Of a DNA stretch of 64,000 nucleotides, positions 6,542 to 29,807 are shown in pieces (the stretch's first letter is position 1; each line of letters opens with the position of its first letter). The notes under the pieces are model-generated. The model did not search any database. It saw only the letters and a list, made by a program, of their open reading frames with translations, and was not told where the DNA came from. The stretch is from assembly GCA_040752795.1 (NCBI GenBank), contig JBFMGH010000608.1:110325-174324 (forward strand), read 5' to 3'. The stretch is from Cyanobacteriota bacterium (GTDB lineage Bacteria; Cyanobacteriota; Vampirovibrionia; JBFMGH01). A program made the translations under genes and the position numbers.

Positions 6542-7162
6542 TTAATTGCCTTGTTTAGAGGCATTATAAAGTATATTAATTCCAAATGGCTTTAAAGCTT
6601 CAGATAGTTTATATATTGGTAGCCCTACAATGTTATTATAGCAACCGTTTATACCTGTTATAAAAGTGCTTGCGTAGCCCTGTATTGCATAAGCTCCGGC
6701 TTTATCCATTGGCTCGCCAGTTTTTATGTAATTGATAATTTCTTCATCACTTAATTCTTTAAAGATTACCCGGGATGAAACACTATCTACATAAGTTCTT
6801 TTGAGTTCCCTGTCAATTATTGCTATACCTGATATTACACTATGTGATCGACCACTTAAAATAGAAAGCATTCTATGGGCGTCATTATCATCTTCGGGTT
6901 TTCCTAAAATCATATTATCTATTGTAACAGTAGTATCAGAGCCAATAACTATTGCAGGATAATCAAGCTTTTTAGCTATATCTTCAGCTTTTTTTAATGC
7001 CAGTAACCTTACTATTTCATCTGGTGTAAGTTCATTATTCTCTATTGTTTCATCAATATCTGATGGTATAATTTTAAAGGATAGGCCCAGTTTCTCTAAT
7101 AGCTCTTTTCTTCTTGGTGAAGCTGATGCTAGAACCAGTATCTTAGAATTTATTTCTGACAT
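6542..7162 (-). CDS. maf: Maf-like nucleoside triphosphate pyrophosphatase (septum formation protein Maf)
   Basis: N-terminal ILVLASASPRRKELLEKLGLSFKI followed by the Maf-family core. Confidence 0.85.
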   Translation of the reverse strand: MSEINSKILVLASASPRRKELLEKLGLSFKIIPSDIDETIENNELTPDEIVRLLALKKAEDIAKKLDYPAIVIGSDTTVTIDNMILGKPEDDNDAHRMLSILSGRSHSVISGIAIIDRELKRTYVDSVSSRVIFKELSDEEIINYIKTGEPMDKAGAYAIQGYASTFITGINGCYNNIVGLPIYKLSEALKPFGINILYNASKQGN

Positions 7163-10140: not shown

Positions 10141-10773
10141 TTAGCTTTTTGGTGTTTTGTAAGCATCCACGGCTGAATACAAACTAATTACTCCAGTTGC
10201 AAAAAATGCTTTTCTGGCGGCAATTATGTTACCTGTTAATGCAAACTTTGCTGCTATTAAAGCTGTTGCCATGGATCCTGTAAATAAACCAAGACCTTTT
10301 AAAACCTGGCCGTTAAGCATTTGACCGATACCGGGTAGTATATATGAAGCAATAGATTCTCCAGTGTTTCTTGGATTCTTGGAATCTTTGTCGTTATATT
10401 TGAAAGCATTAATTACTGAATATAAAGTGAGCCCGATGAAACCAGCTAGAGCTGTAAACCCTGCTAAACTTTTTGATTTTAGAGCTAGTTTCTCAGTTTT
10501 TAATAATATTTTAGGATCTGCTTTATCTAGAATAGAGCTAATATGGCAGGATTTTAATAATTTATTTGCCATATATTCAAGCCCGAGAGCACTGGCAAAT
10601 ATTTTTATGCCTTTTGAGCTTTCACCATTTAACATTTGGCCGCTCCCCGGAATAAATAATGATGATATTGCAGGGTAATAATTTTTCTTCTCTGTTTTAT
10701 TTTGCCCTGAAAAAGACAAGTTCCTTTTTTTTGTGAATGTTGCAGGAGGAAGAGTATGAATAGATTCAATCAT
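10141..10773 (-). CDS. Predicted membrane protein with an internally duplicated PGxGQMLNG...KG(L/I) motif
   Basis: Two copies of (I/L)PG(S/I)GQMLNG(E/Q)..KG(I/L). followed by hydrophobic stretches. No family assigned. Confidence 0.5.
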   Translation of the reverse strand: MIESIHTLPPATFTKKRNLSFSGQNKTEKKNYYPAISSLFIPGSGQMLNGESSKGIKIFASALGLEYMANKLLKSCHISSILDKADPKILLKTEKLALKSKSLAGFTALAGFIGLTLYSVINAFKYNDKDSKNPRNTGESIASYILPGIGQMLNGQVLKGLGLFTGSMATALIAAKFALTGNIIAARKAFFATGVISLYSAVDAYKTPKS

Positions 10774-11196: not shown

Positions 11197-12036
11197 ATGT
11201 ATAAGATAGCCAGTGCAAAGAATTTAACAGGCGACCTTTATGAATTTAAGATAGAAGCTCCTCATATTACAAGACATGGTAAGCCGGGTCAATTTATAAT
11301 ACTAAGAGTTGATGCAAAAGGCGAAAGAATACCATTGACTATTGCGGACATAGATAAGAAAAACGGCCTTTTAACTATTGTTTTTATGGCAGTTGGCTTT
11401 ACAACTAAAAAACTTGCTGCTCTGAAAACAGGTGAATCAATACAGGATATCGTTGGCCCATTAGGTGTTGCTACTGAAACAACAGAAAACTTTGGAACAG
11501 TTGCTGTTGTGGCAGGCGGGTACGGAGCGGCCCCGGCATATTTAATTGCTCAATCATATAAAGAAAATGGTAATAAAGTTTATATGATATTTGGTGCAAG
11601 AAATGAAGAACTGCTTTTCTGGCAGGATAAAATGAAAAATGCCTGTGATGAACTCTATATAACTACTGATGATGGCTCTTTTGGTATTAAGGGGCTTGTT
11701 ACTGATCCATTAAAGATGATTATTGAAAGAGAAAAAGTAGATCACGTAATGTGCATTGGCCCTATTCCTATGATGAGAGCTGTGGCCAGGCTTACTAAAG
11801 AGTATGATATTTATACTATTGCCAGTATGAACCCATTAATGGTTGATGGTACTGGCATGTGTGGCGGATGCAGGGTTAGTGTTGATGGTGAAATCAAGTT
11901 TGCCTGTGTTGATGGGCCTGATTTTGATGCCCATAAGGTTGACTTTGATGAGCTTATTAATAGAAACAAAGTTTATGATCACTATACCTGTAAGCTGGAA
12001 TCAAAGGTTAATGAACTGGAAGCTCAAAAGTTTTAA
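11197..12036 (+). CDS. PyrK/NfnA/SudB-family FAD/NAD(P)-binding oxidoreductase subunit with a C-terminal 2Fe-2S cluster motif
   Basis: RHGKPGQFIILRV, a GG.GAAP dinucleotide-binding motif, and C-terminal MCGGCRVSVDGEIKFACVDGPDF. Confidence 0.7.
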   Translation: MYKIASAKNLTGDLYEFKIEAPHITRHGKPGQFIILRVDAKGERIPLTIADIDKKNGLLTIVFMAVGFTTKKLAALKTGESIQDIVGPLGVATETTENFGTVAVVAGGYGAAPAYLIAQSYKENGNKVYMIFGARNEELLFWQDKMKNACDELYITTDDGSFGIKGLVTDPLKMIIEREKVDHVMCIGPIPMMRAVARLTKEYDIYTIASMNPLMVDGTGMCGGCRVSVDGEIKFACVDGPDFDAHKVDFDELINRNKVYDHYTCKLESKVNELEAQKF

Positions 12037-13208
12037 AATGTTAGTGTAATCTTGTCAGAGTTTTTTCTTGCAAATTGAAGATTATTAAGTAACATTTTTT
12101 CCAGTTCTTCAAATAATATAACTTCATCAAATAATTGATAATGTTTAGCAAAGCATTTCAAAGGGTAAATAAGAGCATTTTCTGCATCGGGAATACCCTC
12201 AGGAATGCTTTTAGCTTTAATCATATTCTTGAAACATTGCAAGCTACTACTTATGTGCTCACTATCATGTTTTAAAATCTGTTCTTTGCGTGGATACCAT
12301 ACTTTTTCAAAGGTGTCAGATTCTGTGAACCCACCGGCTTTCTGGCCTATTTTAAATATTGCTTTTTGTATGTCTTTTACAAAAGCAGCTTGAATAACGT
12401 CAGATGGGTCAAGAGCTTCTTTTATAGTCATTGCCTTTAGTAGTGCATTTTGACGGTCCAGTGCAAAAATCATCGCAATACTATTTGTTGCTATATTAAC
12501 CATTGCTTTCTCGAATTCAACCCTGTGAGGGTTGGTGTGTATTGAAAAAACGTAGTTCTTAGATGTTAGTAGTTCAACAGCCTGGCCAAATAAAGAGAAT
12601 TTTGGTAGAGCCAGTTTTATTAACCCTTTTTTATGCGGGTAATAAAGGTTGTTTTCTCTATAGGCACCCTGCATAATGCTCGCTCTGACTACTTTGCTGC
12701 AAATATTATTTATTATTTGCTCTGATAAATCTAACTCAACAAGATTCTTGTTAAGATTATAGATTATTTCATCGTATATTATACCGTTAGATGCCAGAAT
12801 AATTGCAGGAAAATAAAACCTGCTCAAATTAGTATATCCTATAAGCAGCTTTTTAGAGTTTAAATATGACACAAGATTTGTTAACTCATTTACCATATCA
12901 TTAATAAAGCAATATGGTGGAGTGCATAATATTGCAGAAGGTAGGATCTTTTTATGAGCTGCATCTAAAATGCCATTTACAAAACAATCTGCAATACCTA
13001 TTTCTTTTGTATTTCCATCTATTTTAATATTTAATGTAGGGTTTTTAGAGAAAATACCCGCTGTAACACCGTCTTTTCTGCAAATCAGAAGATCAACAGT
13101 GCAATGATAATAAAATGAAACCCCAAGTGATGTTACAGGGTAGATTCCTATAGTTGGCTGTATTATATCTTTAACGCCTGAAACGTTTGTTTGAGGTTTA
13201 GTTTCCAT
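12033..13208 (-). CDS. Hypothetical protein, 391 aa
   Basis: Long clean ORF overlapping the upstream methyltransferase gene by 11 nt (operon). No confident domain. Confidence 0.5.
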   Translation of the reverse strand: METKPQTNVSGVKDIIQPTIGIYPVTSLGVSFYYHCTVDLLICRKDGVTAGIFSKNPTLNIKIDGNTKEIGIADCFVNGILDAAHKKILPSAILCTPPYCFINDMVNELTNLVSYLNSKKLLIGYTNLSRFYFPAIILASNGIIYDEIIYNLNKNLVELDLSEQIINNICSKVVRASIMQGAYRENNLYYPHKKGLIKLALPKFSLFGQAVELLTSKNYVFSIHTNPHRVEFEKAMVNIATNSIAMIFALDRQNALLKAMTIKEALDPSDVIQAAFVKDIQKAIFKIGQKAGGFTESDTFEKVWYPRKEQILKHDSEHISSSLQCFKNMIKAKSIPEGIPDAENALIYPLKCFAKHYQLFDEVILFEELEKMLLNNLQFARKNSDKITLTF

Positions 13209-13905
13209 ATGATCCTATGATAAGCAGGGCGCCAATATGTTCTTTAAAGAAAATTAGTTCTTCTACAGTGTTGTAACCCCACTTTGGTTCAAATGTATTT
13301 TTGTCTACAGGCCTGGGGTCAAAGATTCTTTTTGTTTTAATATGGCTAAAACCTGCTTCAATGAATAGTTCTTTATATTCTGATTCAGATAAATAATGCA
13401 TTTTTAGGGGTATATAATCAGCCCATACCGCGCTATTTGTGTGTTCTTTGTAGAAATAAGTTATACAATAAAATTTCCCATAGGGTTTTAGAACACGTTT
13501 GACTTCCTTTAGAGCATTTAGCAGGTTTTCAGCATAATAAATAGACTCAACAGAAGTTATAATATCAAAAAAATCATTATCAAATGACAGGTTTGAAAAA
13601 TTGCCAGTTTTAAAATGAACATTATTAAACTCTTTGCTAAGTGTTTTAGCCCTGTTAAGCATTTTTTCAGATATATCAATGCCATAAGCATTACCATCAG
13701 GGGTAATGTGTTCAGCCATGATACGAACAGTGTAGCCATTACCACAACCAATATCAAGTGTGTTAATACCAGGAGTTAATTGCATTTCTTTTAAGGCTGC
13801 TTCAACAGCTATAATATGTTCATTTTGCATTGAATCAGCCCTGCCCAAGTCATGCCAGTTGTCAAATTCTTTTGATACAATTAATTGATGTTCTTTATTG
13901 ATCAT
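13198..13905 (-). CDS. Class I SAM-dependent methyltransferase
   Basis: Motif I LDIGCGNGYTV. Post I and motif II fit the MTase_11/25 family. Confidence 0.75.
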   Translation of the reverse strand: MINKEHQLIVSKEFDNWHDLGRADSMQNEHIIAVEAALKEMQLTPGINTLDIGCGNGYTVRIMAEHITPDGNAYGIDISEKMLNRAKTLSKEFNNVHFKTGNFSNLSFDNDFFDIITSVESIYYAENLLNALKEVKRVLKPYGKFYCITYFYKEHTNSAVWADYIPLKMHYLSESEYKELFIEAGFSHIKTKRIFDPRPVDKNTFEPKWGYNTVEELIFFKEHIGALLIIGSYGN

Positions 13906-13906
13906 T

Positions 13907-14890
13907 TTAGTTCTTTCTTTGTTTTAAAAGTTCAATTTCTTGTTTGATTTTTTCTCTATCAGAAGCCTCCGGAAATGTTTTTAAGTAGCTTTTCAATACT
14001 AAAATAACATTTACGTAATTGTTAGTTTTCTTTAGTGTGTTTGCGAGAGCTTTATAGCTATCAGGGTTTTTGGTATTATAACTAATAGAGCCATTAAAAG
14101 CATTTATGGCTTCTGGATAATTGTTTAAAGCTTGATAAGTAAGACCTGTATTGAATAAAATTTCCGATTTTAGCTTATTTTCAGTATTCTGTTTCAGTGC
14201 CATGTTAAGATTATCTAATGCTGAACTATAGTTTTGAGACAGAAAATAGGCAAATCCTAGCCGGTTAAGAGTAATGGCAGAGTTTGGATTAATAGATTTT
14301 GATTTTTCCAGAGCGTTAATAGCTTCAGGATAATTTTGTTGTTTTATATAAGCCAGGCCAAGATTGTTATAAGCACTAAAAAAATTGGGATCAATGTTAA
14401 GAGCGATATTTAAATGTTCAAAAGCTTCAGGAAATCGGGCTGCTTTGATGTATGTATGGCCAAGATTATTATGTACCAGTGCACTGTTTGATTTAAATGA
14501 GATAGCTTTTTTGTATGTTTCTATAGCTCGGTCATATTCTCCTATTTCGTCATATGCACCGGCCAGGTTGTTATAGGCAGTAGGATAGTTTGAATTTAAT
14601 TCTATAGCTTTTTTATATTCTTCAATTGCCAGTTGAAACCTTTTCTGAGCATAGTAGGTAAACCCAAGTTCATTATGATAAAGAGCGTTTGCAGGGTCTA
14701 ATTTTACTGCTTCTTTAAATTTTTCTTCAGCATCAGAAAGATTACCAGATTCAAGTGATTTTGAACCAAAAGTATAGAGCCCAAATGCCTCTTTATTGCT
14801 TGTATCTGGGTTGTCATAGTTGCAATAAGCGGGTCTAATACCAGATGTAATTAATATTATTGAGATAATAAAAATAAAAAAATTTTTCAT
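13907..14890 (-). CDS. Tetratricopeptide-repeat (TPR) protein with an N-terminal signal or lipoprotein-like peptide
   Basis: Multiple 34-aa TPR units (A..YNNLG.AY...Y.EAI..YKKA...P). N-terminal hydrophobic segment. Confidence 0.75.
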   Translation of the reverse strand: MKNFFIFIISIILITSGIRPAYCNYDNPDTSNKEAFGLYTFGSKSLESGNLSDAEEKFKEAVKLDPANALYHNELGFTYYAQKRFQLAIEEYKKAIELNSNYPTAYNNLAGAYDEIGEYDRAIETYKKAISFKSNSALVHNNLGHTYIKAARFPEAFEHLNIALNIDPNFFSAYNNLGLAYIKQQNYPEAINALEKSKSINPNSAITLNRLGFAYFLSQNYSSALDNLNMALKQNTENKLKSEILFNTGLTYQALNNYPEAINAFNGSISYNTKNPDSYKALANTLKKTNNYVNVILVLKSYLKTFPEASDREKIKQEIELLKQRKN

Positions 14891-15060
14891 TGTATTTATA
14901 TTGTTTTACGTATTAAATTCTACATTAGTAAGTTTAAAACAAATTATATTAACTAAACAAAACAAAAAAAGATATCAGGTAATTTTTGTGTTCTATAATA
15001 AGAACTGAAATTCTTTTTTTAAAAAAAATTTGTAATTCAAGCATATATAGGTTTTTTATA

Positions 15061-16701
15061 GTGAAAATAGTTATATTATGTGCTGGTAGAGGTTCAAGGC
15101 TTGGGGATATGACAGATTATATACCTAAATCAATGATAACTATCAATAGAAAACCTATTATATCTTTTATACTAGATCACATTTATACAGGGTGCTCTTT
15201 TAAATGCAGAGTAGAAGTTGGTGTTGCAGTTGGATATAGAGCTGAGATACTTCAGAACTATATAGAAGGTTTTTATCCTGATAAAGATATAAAGTGTATA
15301 AAGGTAGACAAGTATCAGGGGAGTGGTGCAGGGCCTGGGTATTCTTTATTGCAAATGAAAAAATTTGTTGCAGGTGAACCGTTTATACTTATTTTGGGTG
15401 ATACATTATGTTTTGATGATCTGGCTACAATCGTGCAAGAGGAGAATGTTGTAGGAGTTTATGGGGTAGATAACCCGGCAAGATTTACAACCTGTGAGAT
15501 TGATAATGATTATCATATTCAAAAGTTCTATGATAAGGAAGTGAATGCCCCATCAAATCTGGCTATAATTGGTGTATATTATATAAAAGAATCAGAATTG
15601 TATTTTGAGGGCCTTGAAAAAACTAAAGAACTTCTCATACAGAATGAGTTACAGATAAGTAACGGGTTGAATTATCTATTAGAAAAAGGTAAGCAAATAA
15701 GAGCATTAGTTTGTGATTGGTATGATGCAGGAATTGAAGAAACCCTTCAGTCAACCAGGTTTTGTCTGGGAGACCATGATACAGTTTTCAAGAATAATAC
15801 ATTAACTATTATTCAGGATGAAAAAGTAAGAAAGTTCGGGTTTGATGAGTCGTTTGATGAACTAATAAAATATTATAAAGAAATACAGAATCTGCCAGCT
15901 AGAGAACTCTACGATGAGGTTCTTTGTGTTTCTGAAGAGCATCCTAAATATTTTGATTTTAAATATAATAAAAACCAGAAACTGGCGGCTATATTTTTAA
16001 ATAAGCAAGTAGGTATAGAAAAAGCTTATAACATGATTAGGAATGTTATAGTAAAACTTAAAGAATGCATGTATACACCTGTAAAAAATATTGCTAATTC
16101 AGAAGATGTTTTATATGAATATAAAACAAGTATTCTTGAATTGTTAAAGGCTGATAGTGTGATAAAAGAGTATATTGAGCAGGAGAGGGTAATAATCAAT
16201 GGAATCGAACAGGAAAACCCTGTAAGGCTTTTAAAATCTATGGATACAGGGTGTTTAGCACCTGATTTTTATGTGCCTATTCATGGCAAGCTTTATCTTG
16301 GAAACATACTTTATAACGTTGATACAGAAGACTTTAAGCTTATTTATCCTGATATGAGATTTGGAAAGACATTTATATATGGAGATTATGCCTGTGATTT
16401 AGCAATGCTAAAGCAGTGTTTTAACGGTAAATATAATATGATCAAAGCAGATAAATTTGATTTAAAAATAAATTCAGCTAGTAGTTTTGAATATAAATTA
16501 TTTAATAATGAGCTTTTAGAAGAAATTAATAATAGATTTGAAAGCCTTGTGAGGGAAGTTTTTGGAGATGATTCTTTGATAAATAAGATAAATTTATTAG
16601 AAGGAATATTGTTTCTTAAAAATATTAGTCAGGTAAGTAAAAAAGAGCAGAAAATAGGTTTTTTATTAACAGCTACCAATATAATTAATAAATATGTTTA
16701 G
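15061..16701 (+). CDS. Fusion protein: N-terminal sugar-phosphate nucleotidyltransferase domain plus a C-terminal kinase-like (APH/choline-kinase fold) domain
   Basis: N-terminus KIVILCAGRGSRLG is the NTP-transferase G-loop. C-terminus has IHGKLYLGNILY (Brenner-like motif with K in place of the catalytic D) and DMRFGK....GDYACDLA (D.E....G....DLA). I chose the GTG at 15061 over the upstream ATG at 14986, which lies in AT-rich promoter-like sequence. Confidence 0.6.
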   Translation: MKIVILCAGRGSRLGDMTDYIPKSMITINRKPIISFILDHIYTGCSFKCRVEVGVAVGYRAEILQNYIEGFYPDKDIKCIKVDKYQGSGAGPGYSLLQMKKFVAGEPFILILGDTLCFDDLATIVQEENVVGVYGVDNPARFTTCEIDNDYHIQKFYDKEVNAPSNLAIIGVYYIKESELYFEGLEKTKELLIQNELQISNGLNYLLEKGKQIRALVCDWYDAGIEETLQSTRFCLGDHDTVFKNNTLTIIQDEKVRKFGFDESFDELIKYYKEIQNLPARELYDEVLCVSEEHPKYFDFKYNKNQKLAAIFLNKQVGIEKAYNMIRNVIVKLKECMYTPVKNIANSEDVLYEYKTSILELLKADSVIKEYIEQERVIINGIEQENPVRLLKSMDTGCLAPDFYVPIHGKLYLGNILYNVDTEDFKLIYPDMRFGKTFIYGDYACDLAMLKQCFNGKYNMIKADKFDLKINSASSFEYKLFNNELLEEINNRFESLVREVFGDDSLINKINLLEGILFLKNISQVSKKEQKIGFLLTATNIINKYV

Positions 16702-16806
16702 ATTAAATATTTATCAAAAATTAAGTATAAATAATTAACACTGGGCTTTACAAAGAAAATGAGCGTTGCTATAATTCTTATAGACAAAAAATAGTATTAA
16801 AATTGT

Positions 16807-16878
16807 TCCTCAGTAGCTCAATGGTAGAGCATGCGGCTGTTAACCGCAGGGTTGTAAGTTCGAATCTTACCTGAGGAG
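16807..16878 (+). tRNA. tRNA-Asn (anticodon GUU)
   Basis: Cloverleaf folded by hand: acceptor UCCUCAG/CUGAGGA, D-arm GCUC..AGAGC, anticodon stem UGCGG/CCGCA with loop CUGUUAA, T-arm GUAAG-UUCGAAU-CUUAC, discriminator G. CCA is not encoded. A T-run follows. Confidence 0.85.
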
Positions 16879-17667
16879 CTTTTTAATTGACAGGCTGTAA
16901 ACACTTGTTATAAAGACTTTTAAGGCACTTGGGTTATTATATAAAAATATGTATGAATTCAGGTGTGTATAAAAATAACAGCTTTTTTTAACATTAACGT
17001 AAGATTTTAATAGAGAAAAAATAAGTTGATTTATAAATAATAATTTGGGTTTTCTTGTTCGAATTGTTCCATTCTATTTTCATTCAAAATGATTGCTAAA
17101 AGTGAATAGAAATAACTCCGATGGTTATATTACTCACTATAAAATGAACAATCAAAATGAACATCTAATAAAGCAAAAGAAAACAATTTTTTTACTGATT
17201 CAATAAAGGTAATAAATATTCGAACAATTTTTCTGTTTAAAAGTATAGTAAGCTGTAAAGAAAAAAAAATTTTTCGATATTTTCCATAGGGCTTAGATCG
17301 TTAATTTACATATAATTAGAAAAAAGTATTTTTCTGGAGCCAAGAATTTATAACTAAATCAGGTAAAATATAAATTTAAAAAATTTACATATTGTTGCAT
17401 TTGGCCAAAAGGAGTTTCTCGTAAGTATTATGCTTAAATTGATCCGAATGCTAGTGATGTAGCATCTTCACTATTCTTAACTTTTAAGCAAAATAGGTTC
17501 CGTGAAATGTAGACGTGTAAACAATGTTAGCTTGCTAGTAGGTTAAAAAAAACCAAATCTTTTTTTTGGTGTAACAGTTGTTGTTAAAGTAGATCAGTGG
17601 CCCACCCGCCCGCCCAAAGCTTTGCCAGTTAGAAAAACAATGAAAAAAATCTGTTAACATAAAATAA

Positions 17668-17731: not shown

Positions 17732-18148
17732 TTACCGGAGCTCTTCTAATAGTAATTGAGCTTTTTTCATAAGTTCTGGTTTATCCAGATCGGGTTTGAG
17801 TTCCAGATATTTATCCAGAGCTTTTAAGGGAGATTTGTAGAACGTAGCATTTAGCTCAGGGAGGTTAGTTCTTGACGGATTTTGAACTACAACCGGAGTT
17901 ATGCTACAAAAGGAGGTTCTAGTAAGTTTTTCCTTAAGTTTTCCTACGTTTATAGAATGAACCTGTTCGGGAGAGACAGAGTATATTATTTTTATGACAC
18001 AGTCTTCTATTTCGTGGTTTTCAATAGTAGAAATAATTTTTTGTTGTGGGTCAGAGTCATTAACAGCATCAATAACGATAGTTTTAAACTTGCTAGGTTT
18101 AAATAGTACAGTATTTCCTTTGAATCGATCTTTATGAAAGCTTGCCAC
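17732..18148 (-). CDS. Hypothetical protein, 138 aa
   Basis: ORF with a downstream terminator. No recognisable domain. Confidence 0.45.
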   Translation of the reverse strand: MASFHKDRFKGNTVLFKPSKFKTIVIDAVNDSDPQQKIISTIENHEIEDCVIKIIYSVSPEQVHSINVGKLKEKLTRTSFCSITPVVVQNPSRTNLPELNATFYKSPLKALDKYLELKPDLDKPELMKKAQLLLEELR

Positions 18149-18473: not shown

Positions 18474-20438
18474 TTAGAGTCTTCTCATATCTTTATCAGC
18501 TATTATAAAAAGATTTATAAGGTCATCCAGCTCTTTAGCTCTTCTCTGATAATAACTTATATCATCTTCTAATTGTCTGATAAGTTGTTTCTGTTCTTCA
18601 ATTTTATTAATATTATCTTTCATATATTTTTGCAGTTTAGCTTGTGCGCCCTGAGCATCTGAAAGAACTTCAGACATTGAAATGCCCATTGCTTCCATAG
18701 TTTGCCTGATTATTTGAGCTCCGGTTTGTCTTGTAACACCTGGAGGCAAAGTAGAAACCAGTTTTATAAGAGTTTCAACATTTGAATTAAATAATTCTAC
18801 CCTTCTACGAGTGGCCCTTTCATCTCTTCTAGGATCAAAATCTCTATCTCTTGACATATCATTGTACGACCTGTCATCATATCTGTGATAATCTCTTGAT
18901 GAATCGTGATAAAGCCTATCATCATATCTGTGATAGTCGCGAGATGATTCCTGATAAGATCTATCATCATACCTGAGAGAATCTCTATGTGGTTCATGGT
19001 AAGATCTGTCATCGTGCTTGTTGTAACCTCTATCATCAGGTCTATAAGGTTCAGGATGTGTTTCACGATAGCCTCTATCATCAGGTCTATAAGGTTCAGA
19101 ATGTGTTTCACGATAGCCTCTATCATCAGGTCTATAAGGTTCAGGGTGTGTTTCACGATAGCCCCTATCATCAGGTCTATAAGGTTCAGGGTGTGTTTCA
19201 CGAGGCCTGTAGTGATCAGACTGATCTTGCGCATAATGTTTACGAGGTTCAGGTTGAGGTTCGTGATAGCTTCTATTGTCAGGTTTGTAAGGTTCAGGTT
19301 TAACAGGTGGAGATGTTATATGAGGATCCCTCTCTTGTGATACATTATAGTCTTTAGGCTGATATTGATCAAGATCTAAAGGAGACTTTGAAGGTTCTTG
19401 AGGTTTAGCATACTGTGGCTCAACTCCCGGGTGAATAGAGTCAAGATCAATAGTTCTTTGAGGTTCCTGTCTCCTAGGAATCTCTTCCCATTGCTGATTT
19501 TGATTCATTTGTTGTTGTGGGTATCCTATTTGAACTTCTTGTGGTTCATAACTATCGTAAGTCGACATTTCTTGCTTATGCGGTTGATATGGCTCAGGTT
19601 CATACTGCTCTGGTTCTAATTGTTGATTGTAATCATCCTCCTGATAGGAGTATTGATTATAACCAATATTTGCTTGAGCATGAGAAGCATGGGCAGGTTG
19701 TGGAGTATATTCCTGGTATTCCTGAGTCTCGTAAGGTTGATATTCTGTAAACTCCTGGGGATAATCTTCTGTTTCAGGAGGATCCACCTCTTCAAGTGCT
19801 GGCTGTTGTTGCATCTCTTGATAAGCTCTCCCCTGAGAATATCCTAATTGAGGGGGCTGATATTCTGGTACATCAGAATCATCTTCAAATTGTTGAATAT
19901 CATCACTAAAGTCATCATAAGATTGTTGATTGTAATTAAAATCATCTTGAGCCTGTTGCTCATATCTTTGAGGGTCAAAGCTTTGTGGATCATAAGATTG
20001 CTGATCATATGACGGCTGATCATATGATTGTTCATTGTAATCAATAGACATAGGGGTTTCTTCTGACATCATTTGTTCTTCAATTGGTGCAAAACTTCCG
20101 TATTGGGGAGTATCCGTAGTAGTAGTCATACCGTCTAGGTCAGGTAATTCTGAAGTCATTTCGGGCTGAAATTCAGTGGGTTCAAGAGGACCAGGTTCTT
20201 CATCATAGTGCATTTCTTGAGATCCAAAATCCATATGTGAAATAGTTTCCAGACCATGATTAGCATCAGGTTGATGAGCAGCATAAGGATCAACAGGTAC
20301 TTCTTGATAAGTTGATTGAGCAGCTGCTTGACCTGTTTGAACTTCAGGGTCTTGGGTTTTTAAAGCCTGAATGATTTTCTTACCTAATCCATCTGGAAGT
20401 TTACTTTGTCTTTTAGAATCCACTAATATGCTCTCCAA
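18474..20438 (-). CDS. Large intrinsically disordered Q/Y/D/P/E-rich repeat protein (654 aa) with a short structured C-terminal domain
   Basis: About 540 aa of low complexity (SYDQPSYDQQSYDPQSFDPQRYEQQ). Four or five tandem copies of ETHPEPYRPDDRGYR, then RYDDRSY..SSRDYH repeats. Ends with a ~110-aa non-repetitive, helical-looking domain (VELFNSNVETLIKLVSTLPPGVTRQTGAQIIRQTMEAMG...). Confidence 0.6.
   Translation of the reverse strand: MESILVDSKRQSKLPDGLGKKIIQALKTQDPEVQTGQAAAQSTYQEVPVDPYAAHQPDANHGLETISHMDFGSQEMHYDEEPGPLEPTEFQPEMTSELPDLDGMTTTTDTPQYGSFAPIEEQMMSEETPMSIDYNEQSYDQPSYDQQSYDPQSFDPQRYEQQAQDDFNYNQQSYDDFSDDIQQFEDDSDVPEYQPPQLGYSQGRAYQEMQQQPALEEVDPPETEDYPQEFTEYQPYETQEYQEYTPQPAHASHAQANIGYNQYSYQEDDYNQQLEPEQYEPEPYQPHKQEMSTYDSYEPQEVQIGYPQQQMNQNQQWEEIPRRQEPQRTIDLDSIHPGVEPQYAKPQEPSKSPLDLDQYQPKDYNVSQERDPHITSPPVKPEPYKPDNRSYHEPQPEPRKHYAQDQSDHYRPRETHPEPYRPDDRGYRETHPEPYRPDDRGYRETHSEPYRPDDRGYRETHPEPYRPDDRGYNKHDDRSYHEPHRDSLRYDDRSYQESSRDYHRYDDRLYHDSSRDYHRYDDRSYNDMSRDRDFDPRRDERATRRRVELFNSNVETLIKLVSTLPPGVTRQTGAQIIRQTMEAMGISMSEVLSDAQGAQAKLQKYMKDNINKIEEQKQLIRQLEDDISYYQRRAKELDDLINLFIIADKDMRRL
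18860..19210. repeat. Tandem 45-bp (15-codon) repeat array inside the disordered-protein gene
   Basis: Near-identical 45-bp units cctctatcatcaggtctataaggttcagRRtgtgtttcacgatag begin at 19027, 19072, 19117 and 19162. More diverged 45-bp units lie at 18862-19020. Confidence 0.8.
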
Positions 20439-25907: not shown

Positions 25908-28900
25908 ATGGTTAGCATCTTTTTAAAATGGTTTAAATCTTTATTCATTTTATGTTTATTAGTAATGACTGCAAATAATTTTACTTATGCTTATGACAAC
26001 CTTTCTAAAGAAGAAAAAACGATTTTTTACTCTTCTAATATTCTTGGAGAATGCTCTTTTTTAATCTCAGATGTATTGTCTAATAGCCAGATCATGGGCG
26101 TTGCAAATTTAGATGCTAAACTGGAGTATGTTAAAAAGCAACTTACACTTGAACCTCCTCTTGTTGAAGATTTAAAAGTTTCTAAAAAAACATTACAAAC
26201 ACTAAAAAAATTTATTGAAGAAGTTAATGAATCCTATAATGAAAAGACATTTAAACTAAAAAAACTAGAACAGGCTAATAAAACTTTTGGCGATTATTCT
26301 GTAGAGCTAAGAGAAGACATTAATAAGTTGTATGGCCCTAAGTATACCTGGCTGTTTGATACAGGTTTCCTTGTTTCTTTTACCAAAGCTTCAATGATAT
26401 CAGATTATAAGAATAAACTTGTATTGTTAGAGTACAAATTTCTGCTTGATTATGTGCCCTATAATATGCCTACCAGTGTAATAAGCTCGTTATCATCTAT
26501 TGCTACTGTTAAAGATGAGGAATTAACACAAAATCAGGTAGAGATACTAAAAGAAGCATCTGATAATATGATATCTTACTTTACAAGCCCCGAGACATAT
26601 TCGCCACCGGCTACTTTAAGAGATCTTGTGGGGAAATGGGAAGGAAGACTGGCCCCTCCTAATGGAGATTATCATAAAGCAAATATTTCAATTACCCCAG
26701 ATATGAGTGCTATATTAAATGTTGAAGGCATGTTTAAAGATATGCCAGTGAATGACTTAACAGTAACTCAGAGTTTGGTTAGCTTTAATATTAAACCCTT
26801 TGCTGATGAACAGCTTATAATAAGATTTTCTGGAAGAATAGTCGATGATGTATTATCGGGCGAAGCTATTGATGTATCTGGTAAAAAAGGTTTATGGCAA
26901 TTTTTGAAAACCCCACAGGTTGATCTAAGTGAATTAGTTAATGCTGAAATAAAAACAGAACCAACAGCCCTTGATAAATTATCAGGTGTTTGGAAAGGTA
27001 AAATACTCGAACAAGATGGAGCAATATCTAATTTAACCCTTCGATTCAATATAGTTGATGATAGTGTGATGTTTGTTGAAAATCCTAACCATAAAAAGAC
27101 TCTTAAGCTTAATTCTGTAGCTGCTAATGATAAGGCAGTCAGGTTTAGCATTTCTCCTGATAATGGTGATATCAATATTACATTTATGGGTGAAATTAAG
27201 GGTAGAATATTAGAAGGGAATGCAATAGGAACAGATGGCAATAAGGCCTATTGGAAAATTATTAAAGTTGAAGATAAACTTACTAAGCCTCAATTAAAGA
27301 GTGATGCTGGTTTTTTTTTCTTGGATCATTTATGTGATCCTATTGTAGACAATTCCTTTATTGAAGGCTTCACGTTAGTTTCTAAAAATATAATTGTGCC
27401 GCCACCTAAAATTAATGAAGGCAAATATAAAGGCCATCTTATTTTTGAAGATGGCTCTAGGGCAGGGCTTGTTCTTGTTTTGTCTAATAAGCAGTCCAAG
27501 ATGTACCTTTTTAGCAAGGAGGATAACTCAAAAATATCTTTAGATATTGATTTAATGAATATTACAGATAGAGAAATAACAATAGATACAACAATAGATG
27601 GCAATAAAGATACTCTGGTTAAGTTTAAAGGCAAAGTTTTTGGAGGATATATTTATGGCGATGCTGTAAATATTGCTGGTGAAAATCTTAAATGGGAACT
27701 TATGGCTGTTGATAAAGCAGATACATTTTTAAGCAATGTTAATTCTTCAAATGTAAAAAGAATAAAAGGCTTATGGAATGGAATGGTGACCTTCTCTAAC
27801 TTGTTTGAGGTGCCTGTAAAACTTGTTATTTCAGATGATGAAACAAAAATGTACTTCGATGACGCAAAAATCTTACTAATATCAGATATTATTCTTGATG
27901 GGACATCGGTTAGCTTCGTTGCAAAGAATGAAGCTGATCCCATGCAAACCATAACCTTTAATGGCAACCTAGAAGAACAGAGTATAACTGGAAAAATAAC
28001 TACAGTTAATGGTCTGGGGCTTGATGTGGTGCTTTCTATGTCTGAAAAATATCAAGAAGATCCATTGAAAGGTATCTGGGCAGGGAGAATTATGCTAGAT
28101 AATGCTTCTGCTGATATTGTATTTGACTTTGTAGAAGATAAAAAGAAAGTTTATATTGATGACTCTAGAGCAGAATCAGGTAGAGTAGAACTATTAATAA
28201 GTAATTTAGTTAAAGATTCTAAAGGAATTAAATTTACAGCTAATACATCTAAAAGCCCTTCAAAAATTGAATTTGTTGGTACTTTTGATAGAGAACTTCT
28301 CAAAGGATCTGCAAAAAATCAGATACAGGGATCTAATAAACTTAATTGGGAAACTTCTAAATCTAATCTAAGTAAGTATGATCCCGAAAGTATTGAGATA
28401 GTATTACATTCTGAACCTGAAAATGCAGGGTATAAAAAAACGTTTTCTTTTCTTGATGAAATGGATAACCTTAATGACAGCAAAATAGATAATGAAACTA
28501 ATGATAAAGTTACTGAAAAAGAAGATAAAACAACTTCAACTATAGATAAAAAACCAGATGAAACTGAAATAAAAGAAAATAAAACAGATGAAATCCTTTC
28601 TCAAAAAGTGATAAATGCAGATGAGATAGATAAAACCAAACAAGATAAAAAAGATAAAGATGTTGATATTGATGAAAGTTCTTCAGAAAAAGAGATTACG
28701 AAAAAAAATGATAAAGAAAGTAAGATAGATAAAAAGATAAAAAAAGATAAATCTAAAAAATCAAGTGAAAATATCAATAAAGAGGAAAATAACAGATCTT
28801 CAGATAAGAAATCAAAGAAAACTAAAAAAACTAAATCTAAAAAAGAAAAACCTGACAAAGTAAAATCAGAAAAAGATACTAAAACAAAGGATAAAAGTAA

Positions 28901-29807
28901 ATCTGAAAAAGAAGATAAGTCTAAACAGTCTGAAGAAGAGAAAATGTCTGATAATAAAAAACCTTCGGATAAGAAATCAAAGAAAACTAAGAAAACTGAA
29001 TCTAAAAAAGAAAAACCTGACGAAATAAAGTCAGAAAAAGATACTAAAACAAAAGATAAAAATAAATCGGTAAAGGATGATCAATCTAAACAGCCTAAAG
29101 AAGAGAAAATATCTGATGAAGATCTGTTTGAAAAATCTAAAATTAAAAAGGCCAGAGAAAATTTAAATTCTGAAACACCTAAAACAGATAAATTAAAAGA
29201 AAAGAAAAAGGATAAGAAAAAAAGAAGATGGCCTTTTGGACGCAAGGACAAAGATAAAACACAAAAAAATAAGCAAAAAGAAGTCGATGTAATACAAGAA
29301 AATCCTGTTAAAGTTGAAGATAATACTGAAGTAATACAGGAAGAGACCTCTGATAAAGATGATAATAAAGAGGAAAATATAAAAAACCCTGAAGAAGATA
29401 AAAGCATTGAATCCAAAGATTTACAGATAAATACTGAAGATAAGCAAATAGAAGAATCTGATGAGATACAAGAATCTAAACAAGAAGATATGCAAGTAGC
29501 TATTGGAGATGAGCTTATTGGTAAATGGGTAGGAGAATTATTTAATCCTCAGGGTGATAAAGGGGAGATATTAATAGATCTTAAGAAATCTGATAGCTAT
29601 ATCTATGTTAATAAAGAAGGTGAAAAAGTTCCGTTTAAATTACTTGACTTAAAAATAAATGGTAAGAATATATATTTTAAAATAAAGCCATCACCTGATT
29701 CAGACTATGGCATAATATTTGATGGGTCTTTAATACAGGGAGTATTGTCCGGAACAGCAACTGACCCCACAGGCAACAAAGGCAAATGGCATGCGCAAAA
29801 GCCCTGA
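25908..29807 (+). CDS. Giant secreted modular protein (1299 aa): signal peptide, six ~95-aa GxWxG...GxKxxW modules, and a K/D/E-rich low-complexity spacer
   Basis: N-terminal signal (MVSIFLKWFKSLFILCLLVMTANNFTYA). Module starts: LVGKWEGRL, LSGVWKGKI, IKGLWNGMV, LKGIWAGRI, LIGKWVGEL, plus one degenerate. Each module ends G.A.D..G.K..W. The ~350-aa spacer is rich in K, D and E. Confidence 0.6.
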   Translation: MVSIFLKWFKSLFILCLLVMTANNFTYAYDNLSKEEKTIFYSSNILGECSFLISDVLSNSQIMGVANLDAKLEYVKKQLTLEPPLVEDLKVSKKTLQTLKKFIEEVNESYNEKTFKLKKLEQANKTFGDYSVELREDINKLYGPKYTWLFDTGFLVSFTKASMISDYKNKLVLLEYKFLLDYVPYNMPTSVISSLSSIATVKDEELTQNQVEILKEASDNMISYFTSPETYSPPATLRDLVGKWEGRLAPPNGDYHKANISITPDMSAILNVEGMFKDMPVNDLTVTQSLVSFNIKPFADEQLIIRFSGRIVDDVLSGEAIDVSGKKGLWQFLKTPQVDLSELVNAEIKTEPTALDKLSGVWKGKILEQDGAISNLTLRFNIVDDSVMFVENPNHKKTLKLNSVAANDKAVRFSISPDNGDINITFMGEIKGRILEGNAIGTDGNKAYWKIIKVEDKLTKPQLKSDAGFFFLDHLCDPIVDNSFIEGFTLVSKNIIVPPPKINEGKYKGHLIFEDGSRAGLVLVLSNKQSKMYLFSKEDNSKISLDIDLMNITDREITIDTTIDGNKDTLVKFKGKVFGGYIYGDAVNIAGENLKWELMAVDKADTFLSNVNSSNVKRIKGLWNGMVTFSNLFEVPVKLVISDDETKMYFDDAKILLISDIILDGTSVSFVAKNEADPMQTITFNGNLEEQSITGKITTVNGLGLDVVLSMSEKYQEDPLKGIWAGRIMLDNASADIVFDFVEDKKKVYIDDSRAESGRVELLISNLVKDSKGIKFTANTSKSPSKIEFVGTFDRELLKGSAKNQIQGSNKLNWETSKSNLSKYDPESIEIVLHSEPENAGYKKTFSFLDEMDNLNDSKIDNETNDKVTEKEDKTTSTIDKKPDETEIKENKTDEILSQKVINADEIDKTKQDKKDKDVDIDESSSEKEITKKNDKESKIDKKIKKDKSKKSSENINKEENNRSSDKKSKKTKKTKSKKEKPDKVKSEKDTKTKDKSKSEKEDKSKQSEEEKMSDNKKPSDKKSKKTKKTESKKEKPDEIKSEKDTKTKDKNKSVKDDQSKQPKEEKISDEDLFEKSKIKKARENLNSETPKTDKLKEKKKDKKKRRWPFGRKDKDKTQKNKQKEVDVIQENPVKVEDNTEVIQEETSDKDDNKEENIKNPEEDKSIESKDLQINTEDKQIEESDEIQESKQEDMQVAIGDELIGKWVGELFNPQGDKGEILIDLKKSDSYIYVNKEGEKVPFKLLDLKINGKNIYFKIKPSPDSDYGIIFDGSLIQGVLSGTATDPTGNKGKWHAQKP
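28804..29125. repeat. ~165-bp (55-codon) tandem duplication within the K/D/E-rich spacer of the giant protein
   Basis: Two near-identical DNA units encode SDKKSKKTKKTKSKKEKPDKVKSEKDTKTKDKSKSEKEDKSKQSEEEKMSD and SDKKSKKTKKTESKKEKPDEIKSEKDTKTKDKNKSVKDDQSKQPKEEKISD. Confidence 0.75.

Follow-up and report, generated by a model that had tools for sequence, protein, structure and literature searches.

The window, a 64,000-nt stretch from a member of the Vampirovibrionia (non-photosynthetic relatives of cyanobacteria), holds a divergent cluster in which three minus-strand genes, coding for a TPR-repeat protein, a methyltransferase and a 391-aa protein, lie opposite a plus-strand gene coding for a nucleotidyltransferase (NTase) fused to a kinase-fold domain (Table 1). 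This four-gene layout was first described in a reading of the letters alone (the sequence-only reading), and the ORF coordinates bear it out, including the tight packing of the minus-strand genes, with a 1-nt gap at one junction and an 11-nt overlap at the other. A promoter scan for the divergent intergenic region gave no useful signal, with 35 sites against 26 expected.

When called mechanically, the plus-strand ORF (14986-16701) starts at a TTG at 14986 and encodes 571 aa. Every homologue begins with MK[IV][VI]IL, which in the alignment to P0001-P0005 and L013 corresponds to a GTG at 15061, with an AGG ~10 nt upstream. The protein most likely starts at this GTG and has 546 aa; the figure of 547 aa given earlier equals these residues plus the stop.

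The genes flanking the cluster are housekeeping genes, and the whole 20-kb neighbourhood, including unrelated genes such as those for HPF, LysA, CdaA, CobO and UppS, is collinear among relatives, so that shared gene order says little about function at this locus. Within about 15 kb there is no gene for a glycosyltransferase or for any other step in glycan synthesis.

Table 1. Genes and features of the divergent cluster, in window positions
Feature	Position	Strand	Size and basis
Fusion gene (nucleotidyltransferase, then putative pseudokinase)	15061..16701	+	546 aa plus stop, probable GTG start
NTase domain, residues 1-225	15061..15735	+	Pfam PF00483, signature residues
APH/choline-kinase-fold domain, putative pseudokinase, residues ~240-546	15778..16698	+	
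Degenerate catalytic loop IHGKLYLGNILY, residues 407-418	16279..16314	+	Alignments, motif search
Lys410 codon, catalytic Asp position	16288-16290	+	
Tyr429 codon, Mg-binding Asp position	16345..16347	+	Family alignment; IDW on CK2 DWG
Class I SAM methyltransferase	13198..13905	-	235 aa; Pfam Methyltransf_31/11; PDB 6f5z match
TPR-repeat protein, predicted secreted	13907..14890	-	327 aa; Pfam TPR_1/2/11
391-aa protein, predicted PanE/ApbA fold	12033..13208	-	Structure model and Foldseek
Divergent intergenic region, TPR gene / fusion gene	14891..15060	.	170 bp, AT-rich

The two halves of the fusion protein

The N-terminal half was proposed to be a sugar-1-phosphate nucleotidyltransferase, and this assignment stands. 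It matches Pfam NTP_transferase (PF00483) with 45.8 bits (cutoff 21.2) and carries the full set of signature residues (GRGSRLG 9-15, PK23, GD114, DK159 and D222), which are invariant across 26 relatives. Its NCBIfam matches (range 1e-25 to 2e-15), namely rmlA_long (about 1e-24), Arch_glmU (2e-24) and HddC (2e-15), all fall under their equivalog cutoffs, and the GxGxR signature loop, PK, GD and (E/D)K can all be traced when it is aligned with ST0452 (2ggo) and RmlA. This half of the protein is apparently intact.

The APH/choline-kinase fold proposed for the C-terminal half was likewise supported, as 15 of 22 relatives match Pfam APH, and a family profile aligned to CK2 places HGD..N..IDW on the HRD..N..DWG motifs. 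The half retains the beta3 Lys258, His408, Gly409, Asn415 and GD442..D446, the last lying within YGDYACDLA at residues 440-448. The reported replacement of the Brenner Asp by Lys is real (HGK, within IHGKLYLGNILY), and no alternative H.D motif, such as a true HGD nearby, was found anywhere in the protein. The Asp of PDMRFGK, previously taken for the DFG equivalent, does not occupy that position: the Asp of the family's IDW/IDP motif aligns with Tyr429, and both catalytic Asp residues are therefore lost.

In a check of 176 family members, 169 had Asp at the two positions; both are missing only in the clade of the fusion protein (this protein and five relatives in the tally) and in P0006. The residue pairs at the two positions are K/Y, N/Y and N/N in the clade and N/G in P0006, and L013, a further clade member, reads HGN / LVNS. 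Weak activity persists in certain kinases whose loop reads HGN or HRN, e.g., JAK2 JH2 and HER3, and may persist in the C-terminal domain too; the retained beta3 Lys is compatible with nucleotide binding and residual chemistry alike.

The neighbouring genes

The methyltransferase matches PDB 6f5z (Hvo_0019) over its full length with an E-value of 2.8e-32. Hvo_0019 of Haloferax volcanii is a Trm112-binding class I methyltransferase whose active site is NodS-like; a substrate with a hexose ring was proposed for it (PMC6144793). That study names six active-site residues, of which our protein keeps five, W10, E111, Y114, Y115 and W152 corresponding to W17, E120, Y123, Y124 and W161, whereas R22 of the NodS-like site is a Glu in our protein. 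In each of the seven clade loci, the fusion and methyltransferase genes neighbour each other in divergent orientation, with no gene in between where the TPR gene is missing. This pair is the only remaining candidate functional unit, joined by a link that is plausible but weak; its adjacency may be plain synteny in a region that is collinear among relatives. In L009 both genes are lost together, leaving a 50-aa methyltransferase remnant. One deletion spanning neighbouring genes accounts for this joint loss.

The TPR protein was labelled a lipoprotein, a label that we drop: it has a signal peptide with no lipobox (the sequence reads ..RPAYC-N), and a comparison of N-termini shows that its orthologues carry AXA-type signal peptides in which no Cys is conserved. 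The gene occurs only in the nearer relatives (L001, L004, L014 and L015) and is missing in the more distant, 43-51% identical ones, with no copy in L006 and L013; it appears to be a neighbour by synteny, with no partnership demonstrable.

The 391-aa protein, formerly an unknown, has by structure modelling (pLDDT 92) the PanE/ApbA fold of ketopantoate reductase / D-mandelate dehydrogenase, with a Foldseek E-value of 3e-11 and TM-scores of 0.75-0.77 (normalised to the target). It scores 12.5 bits with TIGR00745 (cutoff 141), and all homologues found belong to the same lineage, with identities of 46% or more. The gene is kept in L009 and L010, which lack the methyltransferase or fusion genes, and its product probably functions independently of the fusion gene.

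What the fusion protein may do

The account that we favour, and consider fairly probable, is that of a working NTase fused to a retained pseudokinase with a non-catalytic role. The NTase domain, given its complete signature residues, would be a functional nucleotidyltransferase acting on a sugar-1-phosphate or a related phospho-sugar. The C-terminal domain would descend from a small-molecule kinase of the APH/choline-kinase fold. In hundreds of related fusion proteins that domain retains the HGD..N loop together with the Mg-binding Asp and, as known systems suggest, would supply phosphorylated sugar to the NTase, an ancestral role supported by the glycan clusters in which members with both Asp residues lie. 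In the narrow Vampirovibrionia clade these residues have changed from Asp to Lys or Asn at 410 and from Asp to Tyr, Asn or Ser at 429; with both Asp residues lost, phosphate transfer by the canonical mechanism is not expected, and the domain would thus be a pseudokinase, the outcome that the sequence-only reading had suggested and that now looks likely. Its non-catalytic role would probably lie in ligand binding (a nucleotide or a sugar) or in holding the NTase in an oligomeric or regulated state, and the NTase would then depend on sugar-phosphate obtained elsewhere. Among the neighbours, only the methyltransferase has a plausible functional link, possibly methylating a hexose or hexosamine moiety, while the TPR and ketopantoate-reductase-fold genes would be syntenic neighbours, their partnership not demonstrable.

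A different mechanism was also suggested. The domain would then be an active but non-canonical kinase, for example using Lys410 as the catalytic residue or working independently of metal, and the protein would be bifunctional like the rest of its family. Atypical kinases lacking the canonical residues are known, and this idea draws support from the invariance of the beta3 Lys258, His408, Gly409, Asn415 and GD442..D446 and from purifying selection on the domain. We nevertheless find it quite unlikely, since residue 410 is Lys in four of the seven clade members and Asn in P0004, P0005 and L013, the Mg-binding Asp was lost at the same time (residue 429 being Tyr, Asn or Ser, and Asp431 not being conserved within the clade), and the near-universal retention of both Asp residues among relatives points to strong constraint where catalysis is needed. 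The domain, moreover, changes roughly four times as fast as the NTase, with a dN/dS of 0.175 (20 synonymous and 16 non-synonymous changes, 36 substitutions in all) versus 0.044, in a single 96%-identical pair. This faster divergence (30% identity to P0005, versus 59% for the NTase domain), along with the loss of both Asp residues and the dispensability of the whole fusion gene in L009, could instead mark the domain as a slowly decaying, functionless relic beside an NTase half that alone matters. That is very unlikely: the domain is full-length, with no frameshifts, stop codons or truncations, in seven independent assemblies (43-96% identity), its dN/dS is well under 1, ~25 of its positions, structural kinase motifs among them, are invariant in the clade, and its structure model is confident (pLDDT 88). 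These comparisons indicate that the apparently dead kinase domain is still constrained by purifying selection.

The other alternatives concern the pathway. A LicC/LicA-like module, making an activated phospho-alcohol (CDP-choline or CDP-ethanolamine, for instance) instead of an NDP-sugar, with the methyltransferase acting as a phosphoethanolamine N-methyltransferase, is rather improbable, as the NTase half best matches enzymes acting on sugar-1-phosphates (the rmlA_long, Arch_glmU and HddC models; the ST0452, HddC-like and RmlA structures), the methyltransferase is by far best matched by Hvo_0019 (E 3e-32) with its NodS-like sugar-binding site, family members with both Asp residues sit among genes for glycosyltransferases, epimerases, GLF mutase and a cupin, and a dead kinase leaves no route from choline or ethanolamine. 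The earlier proposal that all four genes form a single cell-envelope or sugar-activation pathway fits the close packing of the minus-strand genes and the collinearity of the block in L001, L004, L014 and L015, and a single sugar could, in principle, be the substrate of reductase, methyltransferase and NTase alike. It is nonetheless unlikely and was not sustained: L006 and L013 have the other three genes but no TPR gene, the 391-aa gene survives the deletion of the fusion, TPR and methyltransferase genes in L009 and occurs in L010 with no methyltransferase gene upstream, and collinearity extends through 20 kb of housekeeping genes.

Comparison with known systems

The fusion of an NTase to a kinase, initially regarded as unusual, turned out to define a large family of 1,420 50%-identity clusters (E<1e-30) of proteins of ~510-540 aa. 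We found neither a curated NCBIfam model or informative source name for it nor a characterised member, and the labels 'kinase' and 'sugar-1-phosphate' are ones that we infer from fold and motifs. Its members (e.g., P0015, P0025, P0029 and P0182) share with our protein the two-domain architecture, full-length homology (E-values down to 1e-34 outside the clade), the NTase signature residues, the beta3 Lys, His-Gly, Asn and GD..D. Typical members, however, carry HGD and (I/L)D(W/P), where the clade has lost both Asp residues, and lie in glycan clusters with glycosyltransferases, epimerases, GLF mutase and a PMI-like cupin, whereas the clade's genes lie among housekeeping genes, adjoining the methyltransferase. 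Members with both Asp residues also adjoin or fuse with the PMI-like cupin, a small HAD phosphatase and a GatZ-like protein.

In logic and fold the fusion does resemble AmgK/MurU and LicA/LicC, as noted earlier, but not beyond, the MurU NCBIfam models giving 31 and 15 bits where the cutoffs are 250 and 370. AmgK/MurU (anomeric MurNAc/GlcNAc kinase and MurNAc-1-P uridylyltransferase) are encoded by separate genes, and in contrast to AmgK and NahK-type anomeric sugar kinases, our kinase half is predicted to be catalytically dead. LicA/LicC (choline kinase and CTP:phosphocholine cytidylyltransferase) are fused as LicCA in some bacteria, but our NTase half has more in common with enzymes for sugar-1-phosphates, and the choline-kinase motif IDFEY..N..FD and the Brenner Asp are both missing. 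In the GmhA-HddA-GmhB-HddC route to GDP-D-glycero-alpha-D-manno-heptose, our NTase half matches HddC (E 2e-15) and HddC-like structures (5xhw, 6jq8), and the scheme of isomerase, C1-kinase, phosphatase and NTase is paralleled by the cupin and HAD phosphatase of family members with both Asp residues; yet HddA is a GHMP kinase and not APH-fold, the route's isomerase is a SIS domain rather than a cupin, and no such partners are encoded near our fusion gene. As for the 391-aa protein, it shares the two-domain PanE/ApbA fold, and its EFEKAMVNIATN helix resembles, in our own reading of the sequence, the KPR K..N...N motif, but it is ~80 aa longer and its glycine-rich loop is degenerate (GIYPVTSLG for GxGxxG).

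The closest parallels to the putative pseudokinase domain are enzyme folds kept under selection without catalytic residues, beside or together with an active nucleotide-sugar enzyme, such as GMPPA, an inactive paralogue with a regulatory part alongside GMPPB, and the BSK4 subgroup of CotS/YtaA kinases, which are bacterial small-molecule pseudokinases (PMC2860764); homology to both is at the superfamily level only, and by this analogy the domain may have a regulatory role. The fusion gene appears to be a pseudokinase branch, confined to one lineage, of a large family that is uncharacterised, and not a new pathway: the NTase-kinase fusion itself is widespread, and what is new is its pseudoenzyme variant in a narrow Vampirovibrionia clade.

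An APH-like kinase fold without its two catalytic aspartates

The gene layout proposed by the sequence-only reading was reproduced by our ORF list, including the coordinates of the three minus-strand genes, the 1-nt gap and the 11-nt overlap between them, and the end of the plus-strand ORF. Called mechanically, this plus-strand ORF opens at a TTG and encodes 571 aa. The homologues all start at MK[IV][VI]IL, which corresponds in the window to a GTG with an AGG ~10 nt upstream, and the fusion protein is therefore 546 aa long; the 547 aa reported earlier describe the same protein with the stop codon counted in. As a promoter and terminator scan did not rise above background in this DNA (window GC ~33%), we make no claim of a divergent promoter.

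Features of the window discussed in the text, in window positions
Feature	Position	Strand	Length	Remarks
Predicted membrane protein	10141-10773	-	210 aa	two PG(S/I)GQMLNG copies; weak DUF5683 match
PyrK-like flavoprotein	11197-12036	+		DHODB Fe-S and NAD-binding domains; 71-84% identical in relatives
Reductase-fold gene	12033-13208	-	391 aa	
Methyltransferase gene	13198-13905	-	235 aa	
TPR gene	13907-14890	-	327 aa	
Plus-strand ORF, mechanical TTG start	14986-16701	+	571 aa	
Fusion gene, GTG start	15061-16701	+	546 aa	NTase domain, residues 1-225; kinase-fold domain, residues ~240-546
Sigma-70-like site	16747-16775			before tRNA-Asn; 11/12 match, extended -10 TG
tRNA-Asn (GTT)	16807-16879	+		immediately 3' of the fusion gene
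Conserved protein	17732-18148	-	138 aa	no Pfam match; 57-83% identical in relatives
Acidic repeat protein	18474-20438	-	654 aa	rich in Pro, Gln, Glu and Tyr; no Pfam match
45-nt tandem repeat in the acidic protein gene	19027-19203			3.9 copies, 96% identical; encodes RETHPEPYRPDDRGY units
ORF	25908-29807	+	1,299 aa	no Pfam match at E<=1e-4

The N-terminal half of the fusion protein matches Pfam PF00483 (NTP_transferase) at 45.8 bits (cutoff 21.2), over residues 28-249 of the 571-aa ORF, and in NCBIfam it comes closest to sugar-1-phosphate enzymes (rmlA_long, 1e-24; Arch_glmU, 2e-24; AglF; HddC, 2e-15). The signature of such nucleotidyltransferases (NTases) comprises a G-x-G-[TS]-R-[LM] loop, the Lys of PK downstream of it, GD and a second Asp as metal/phosphate ligands, and (E/D)K, which carries the sugar-phosphate Lys. 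The full set is present here (GRGSRLG at residues 9-15, PK23, GD114, DK159 and D222), and all of it, as well as W220 and G224, is unchanged in 26 relatives. Moreover, alignments to solved structures bring GRGSRLG, PK23, GD114, DK159 and an ELQIS segment into line with ST0452 (2ggo), an HddC-like protein (5xhw) and RmlA (3hl3). Judged by these motifs, the NTase domain is intact. Since the NCBIfam scan of the fusion protein reached no equivalog cutoff, this half is not assignable to a specific enzyme, and its sequence does not reveal which nucleotide and sugar it takes.

When the PDB was searched with the whole fusion protein, only NTases were matched, and the C-terminal domain of the window protein gave no significant Pfam match (Fructosamin_kin only, E 0.09). 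Among the aligned relatives, 15 of 22 match Pfam APH (PF01636; best E 6e-9), and a profile of the domain run against the PDB retrieves, weakly (E ~0.01), protein kinases, macrolide phosphotransferases and APH(3'), in an alignment that lays the family's HGD-x4-N...IDW exactly onto HRD-x4-N...DWG of CK2. On the strength of the relatives' PF01636 matches and the CK2 motif alignment, the proposal of a kinase fold is upheld: the C-terminal half has a bilobal, APH/choline-kinase-like fold.

Where the family consensus reads FHGDLxFxNIL ... LIDWRxxFGG ... GDxYYDLAKL, the window protein reads IHGKLYLGNIL ... LIYPDMRFGK ... GDYACDLAML. Its Brenner motif (H-x-D-x4-N) is H408-G-K410 ... N415, with Lys410 in place of the catalytic Asp. 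This substitution, already seen from the sequence alone, is real, there being no other H.D tripeptide anywhere in the fusion protein. The earlier description was incomplete, as it missed a second loss, that of the Mg-binding (DFG-equivalent) Asp of the family's IDW/IDP motif, which is replaced by Tyr429. The residue previously offered as the DFG-like Asp (Asp431, in 'D..FGK') lies two residues off the family's Asp column and was rejected: in the clade made up of the window protein, its relatives P0001-P0005 and the protein of locus L013, all other members have Lys or Arg there. Other positions are kept, namely His408, Gly409, Asn415, Phe434-Gly435, Gly441-Asp442, Asp446 and the beta3 ATP-binding Lys258, the last being invariant in all 26 aligned sequences.

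The rarity of the double loss was gauged by a tally of 176 domain-carrying members (149 top representatives of an exhaustive search, the domain-carrying matches found earlier and the window protein), in 169 of which both positions are Asp. The remaining seven are the window protein and P0001-P0003 (K/Y), P0004 (N/Y), P0005 (N/N) and the distant P0006 (N/G); outside the tally, the L013 clade member reads HGN and LVNS. Position 410 is thus Lys or Asn in every clade member, and position 429 is Tyr or, in P0005 and L013, Asn. Because the replacement at 410 varies and two catalytic residues are lost together, it looks as if catalysis was given up, and not as if a new mechanism based on Lys had arisen. 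P0006 (locus L007, 8001-9587; 27% identity; HGN / LGW) lies, unlike the window clade, inside a nucleotide-sugar cluster, beside a cupin gene and a GatZ-like gene.

An artefact or a pseudogene was also considered and rejected, for seven independent assemblies (43-96% identity) carry the domain at full length and without interruption, and its dN/dS is below 1. The kinase-like half diverges faster than the NTase half (30% vs 59% identity to P0005), and between the window and the 96% identical L014 locus its Nei-Gojobori dN/dS is 0.175, from 20 synonymous and 16 non-synonymous changes, against 0.044 for the NTase half. The former value is comparable to those of the methyltransferase (0.22) and TPR (0.10) genes in the same pair. 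Small as the counts are, they argue for relaxed yet still purifying selection, i.e., for a retained, non-catalytic role. Judged by fold and motifs, the fusion protein is an NTase joined to an APH-fold pseudokinase that lacks both catalytic Asp residues, a clade-specific derivative of a large bifunctional family.

The parent fusion family

Searched exhaustively as a profile, the C-terminal domain is matched by 5,846 representatives at E<=1e-3; at E<=1e-30 there are 1,420, each a 50%-identity cluster. Among the top 150, most have a length of 510-540 aa, with the domain beginning at about residue 220, and are the same NTase-kinase fusion. The fusion, which had been taken as unusual, is therefore common. 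Its members carry only generic source names ('dTDP-glucose pyrophosphorylase', 'sugar phosphate nucleotidyltransferase'), NCBIfam scans of six members with both Asp residues yielded no family-specific model, and our literature search, which covered NTase-APH kinase and AmgK-MurU fusions, LicCA and APH-type pseudokinases of bacteria, found no paper on this family.

Members with both Asp residues are found inside glycan clusters (loci L007, L032 and L033; proteins P0016, P0026, P0034, P0202 and P0206) containing glycosyltransferases, epimerases/dehydratases, UDP-galactopyranose mutase, a DegT aminotransferase and methyltransferases. Their neighbours or fusion partners are a PMI-like cupin, a ~120-aa HAD phosphatase and a GatZ/KbaZ-like protein; P0202 is an 897-aa NTase-kinase-GatZ fusion. 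Together, and with the GatZ-like epimerase as an optional member, the cupin, the APH-fold C1-kinase, the HAD phosphatase and the NTase of this parent family may constitute a previously undescribed four-step pathway to a rare NDP-sugar. By its predicted functions, this gene set resembles the isomerase / C1-kinase / phosphatase / NTase logic of the GmhA-HddA-GmhB-HddC pathway. Degeneration also occurs in the reciprocal direction: in P0039 and P0040 the GxGxR loop of the NTase is deleted (AA----RN and AA----KY) while HGD and IDP of the kinase are intact, which suggests, at the level of motifs, that a pseudoenzyme can arise from either half.

The clade itself is rare. A GTDB genome scan with the single fusion protein found none, and one with the clade alignment found a single true orthologue (locus L015, identical to P0004), its other 16 loci being unrelated NTases; in these strict-pattern scans of 185,579 species representatives, the one orthologue comes from the same species as P0004. 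Identical or close proteins bear the source names 'Cyanobacteriota bacterium' and 'Vampirovibrionia bacterium'. The GTDB record of L015 (CAZFBA010000008.1) is titled 'uncultured Gammaproteobacteria bacterium', a label that is probably wrong; the locus is collinear with the Vampirovibrionia-type loci L001-L003, and its fusion protein is identical to theirs. With 1,420 clusters at E<1e-30, no curated model found and members in glycan clusters, the large fusion family is probably the more valuable lead.

Gene content around the fusion gene

In relatives with 54-57% identity (L001-L004 and L015) the region is wholly collinear, running from Fe-ADH, HPF and the PyrK-like flavoprotein through the 391-aa, methyltransferase and TPR genes and then, divergently, to the fusion gene, tRNA-Asn, the 138-aa gene, a ~650-aa gene, LysA, CdaA, CobO and UppS. 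Because unrelated housekeeping genes share it, this synteny tells little about function. More telling are the loci of more distant relatives. In L006 (43% identity) and L013 (51%), which have no TPR gene, the fusion gene has the divergent methyltransferase gene as its direct neighbour. L009 shows a deletion between tRNA-Asn and the 391-aa gene that took out the fusion gene, the TPR gene and most of the methyltransferase gene; a 50-aa C-terminal methyltransferase remnant (6868-7017 of that locus; 36% identity) is left just upstream of an intact 394-aa reductase-fold gene. In L010 the 391-aa gene is present without an upstream methyltransferase gene. These patterns set the 391-aa gene apart as independent and mark the TPR gene as a later insertion; by adjacency and a single deletion event, the methyltransferase and fusion genes, and only these, hint at a unit. 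The four-gene envelope or sugar-activation pathway proposed earlier thus finds no support in gene presence and absence among the relatives' loci.

Several other genes keep their places. tRNA-Asn, which forms one edge of the L009 deletion, is at the same position in L001, L004 and L005, and the 138-aa gene always lies between it and the repeat protein, whose counterparts measure 630-661 aa in L001, L003, L004 and L005 and 552 aa in L009. The PyrK-like gene converges on the 391-aa gene with a 4-nt overlap, a pairing seen in every locus, including those without the methyltransferase and fusion genes, and the two may be the real functional pair.

For the window itself, the practical gain is a better annotation of the three minus-strand genes. 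Homologues of the 391-aa protein, previously an unknown, are found only at >=46% identity, all of ~391 aa and from the same lineage. Its structural model (pLDDT 92) is a two-domain Rossmann plus 6PGDH-like helical fold, which Foldseek matches (E 3e-11 to 1e-7) to more than 45 ketopantoate reductase (KPR) and D-mandelate dehydrogenase chains, with TM-scores, normalised to the target, of up to 0.77. By this model, the protein has a ketopantoate-reductase / D-mandelate-dehydrogenase fold. A KPR-like EFEKAMVNIATN helix is present; there is no Pfam match, TIGR00745 scores 12.5 bits against 141, and in place of the GxGxxG dinucleotide-binding loop stands a degenerate glycine-rich one, GIYPVTSLG. The TPR protein, with seven or so TPR units by Pfam and an N-terminal signal peptide, is secreted and not the lipoprotein it was called: it has no lipobox ([LVI][ASTVI][GAS]C), the window reading R-P-A-Y-C, and its orthologues show AXA-type cleavage ends (SPAPA/EE and LPCIA/EE) in which the Cys is not conserved.

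The methyltransferase is a class I SAM enzyme (Pfam Methyltransf_31/11/25), and its closest solved relative by far is Hvo_0019 (6f5z_A; E 2.8e-32; residues 10-231 against 3-223, full length), in which the authors of the structure saw a NodS-like active site and for which they proposed a hexose-ring substrate (PMC6144793). Of the six Hvo_0019 active-site residues W10, R22, E111, Y114, Y115 and W152 (PMC6144793), five are conserved in the window protein, and R22 aligns with Glu29. Residues 13-58, its N-terminal helix pair, give high-scoring but spurious-looking matches to engineered consensus TPR proteins (E 4e-13, 0 accepted stretches), probably a repeat-summing artefact.

Possible roles and relation to known systems

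If the motifs are a fair guide, the likeliest mechanism is one in which the NTase would still make an NDP-sugar from a sugar-phosphate supplied by another enzyme, with the kinase-fold domain as a ligand-binding, regulatory or structural appendage, and the Hvo_0019/NodS-like methyltransferase possibly acting on the same sugar. Secondary matches of the methyltransferase include phosphoethanolamine N-methyltransferases, so a CDP-choline-like module, in which the NTase activates a phospho-alcohol and the methyltransferase is such an enzyme, was weighed against the sugar substrate suggested by the Hvo_0019 match; we give it a low probability.

Staying with the sugar, we venture that the dead kinase might be a ligand-sensing or scaffolding module that binds ATP/GTP or the former sugar and gates the NTase allosterically, forming with the methyltransferase a two-gene unit for a methylated NDP-hexose(amine) in Vampirovibrionia; this is a speculative proposal, and one we think rather unlikely to hold as a whole. 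To our knowledge, bacterial pseudokinases derived from small-molecule APH-fold kinases have hardly been studied. The family offers a natural comparison, with hundreds of relatives that have both Asp residues on one side and, on the other, a small clade that lacks them, is still under selection and is still fused to an apparently active enzyme, so that one can test directly how a metabolic pseudokinase serves the enzyme to which it is fused.

The AmgK/MurU pair, to which the fusion had been likened, differs on two counts: the MurU equivalog models are far from matched (NF045761, 31.4 bits against 250; NF045697, 14.7 against 370), and in place of an active anomeric MurNAc/GlcNAc kinase there is a kinase-fold domain lacking both catalytic Asp residues, the annotated ~30 kb containing no stand-alone kinase gene. 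Should the gating reading hold, the window protein might be a single-chain bacterial counterpart of the GMPPA/GMPPB type of pseudoenzyme regulation of nucleotide-sugar synthesis.
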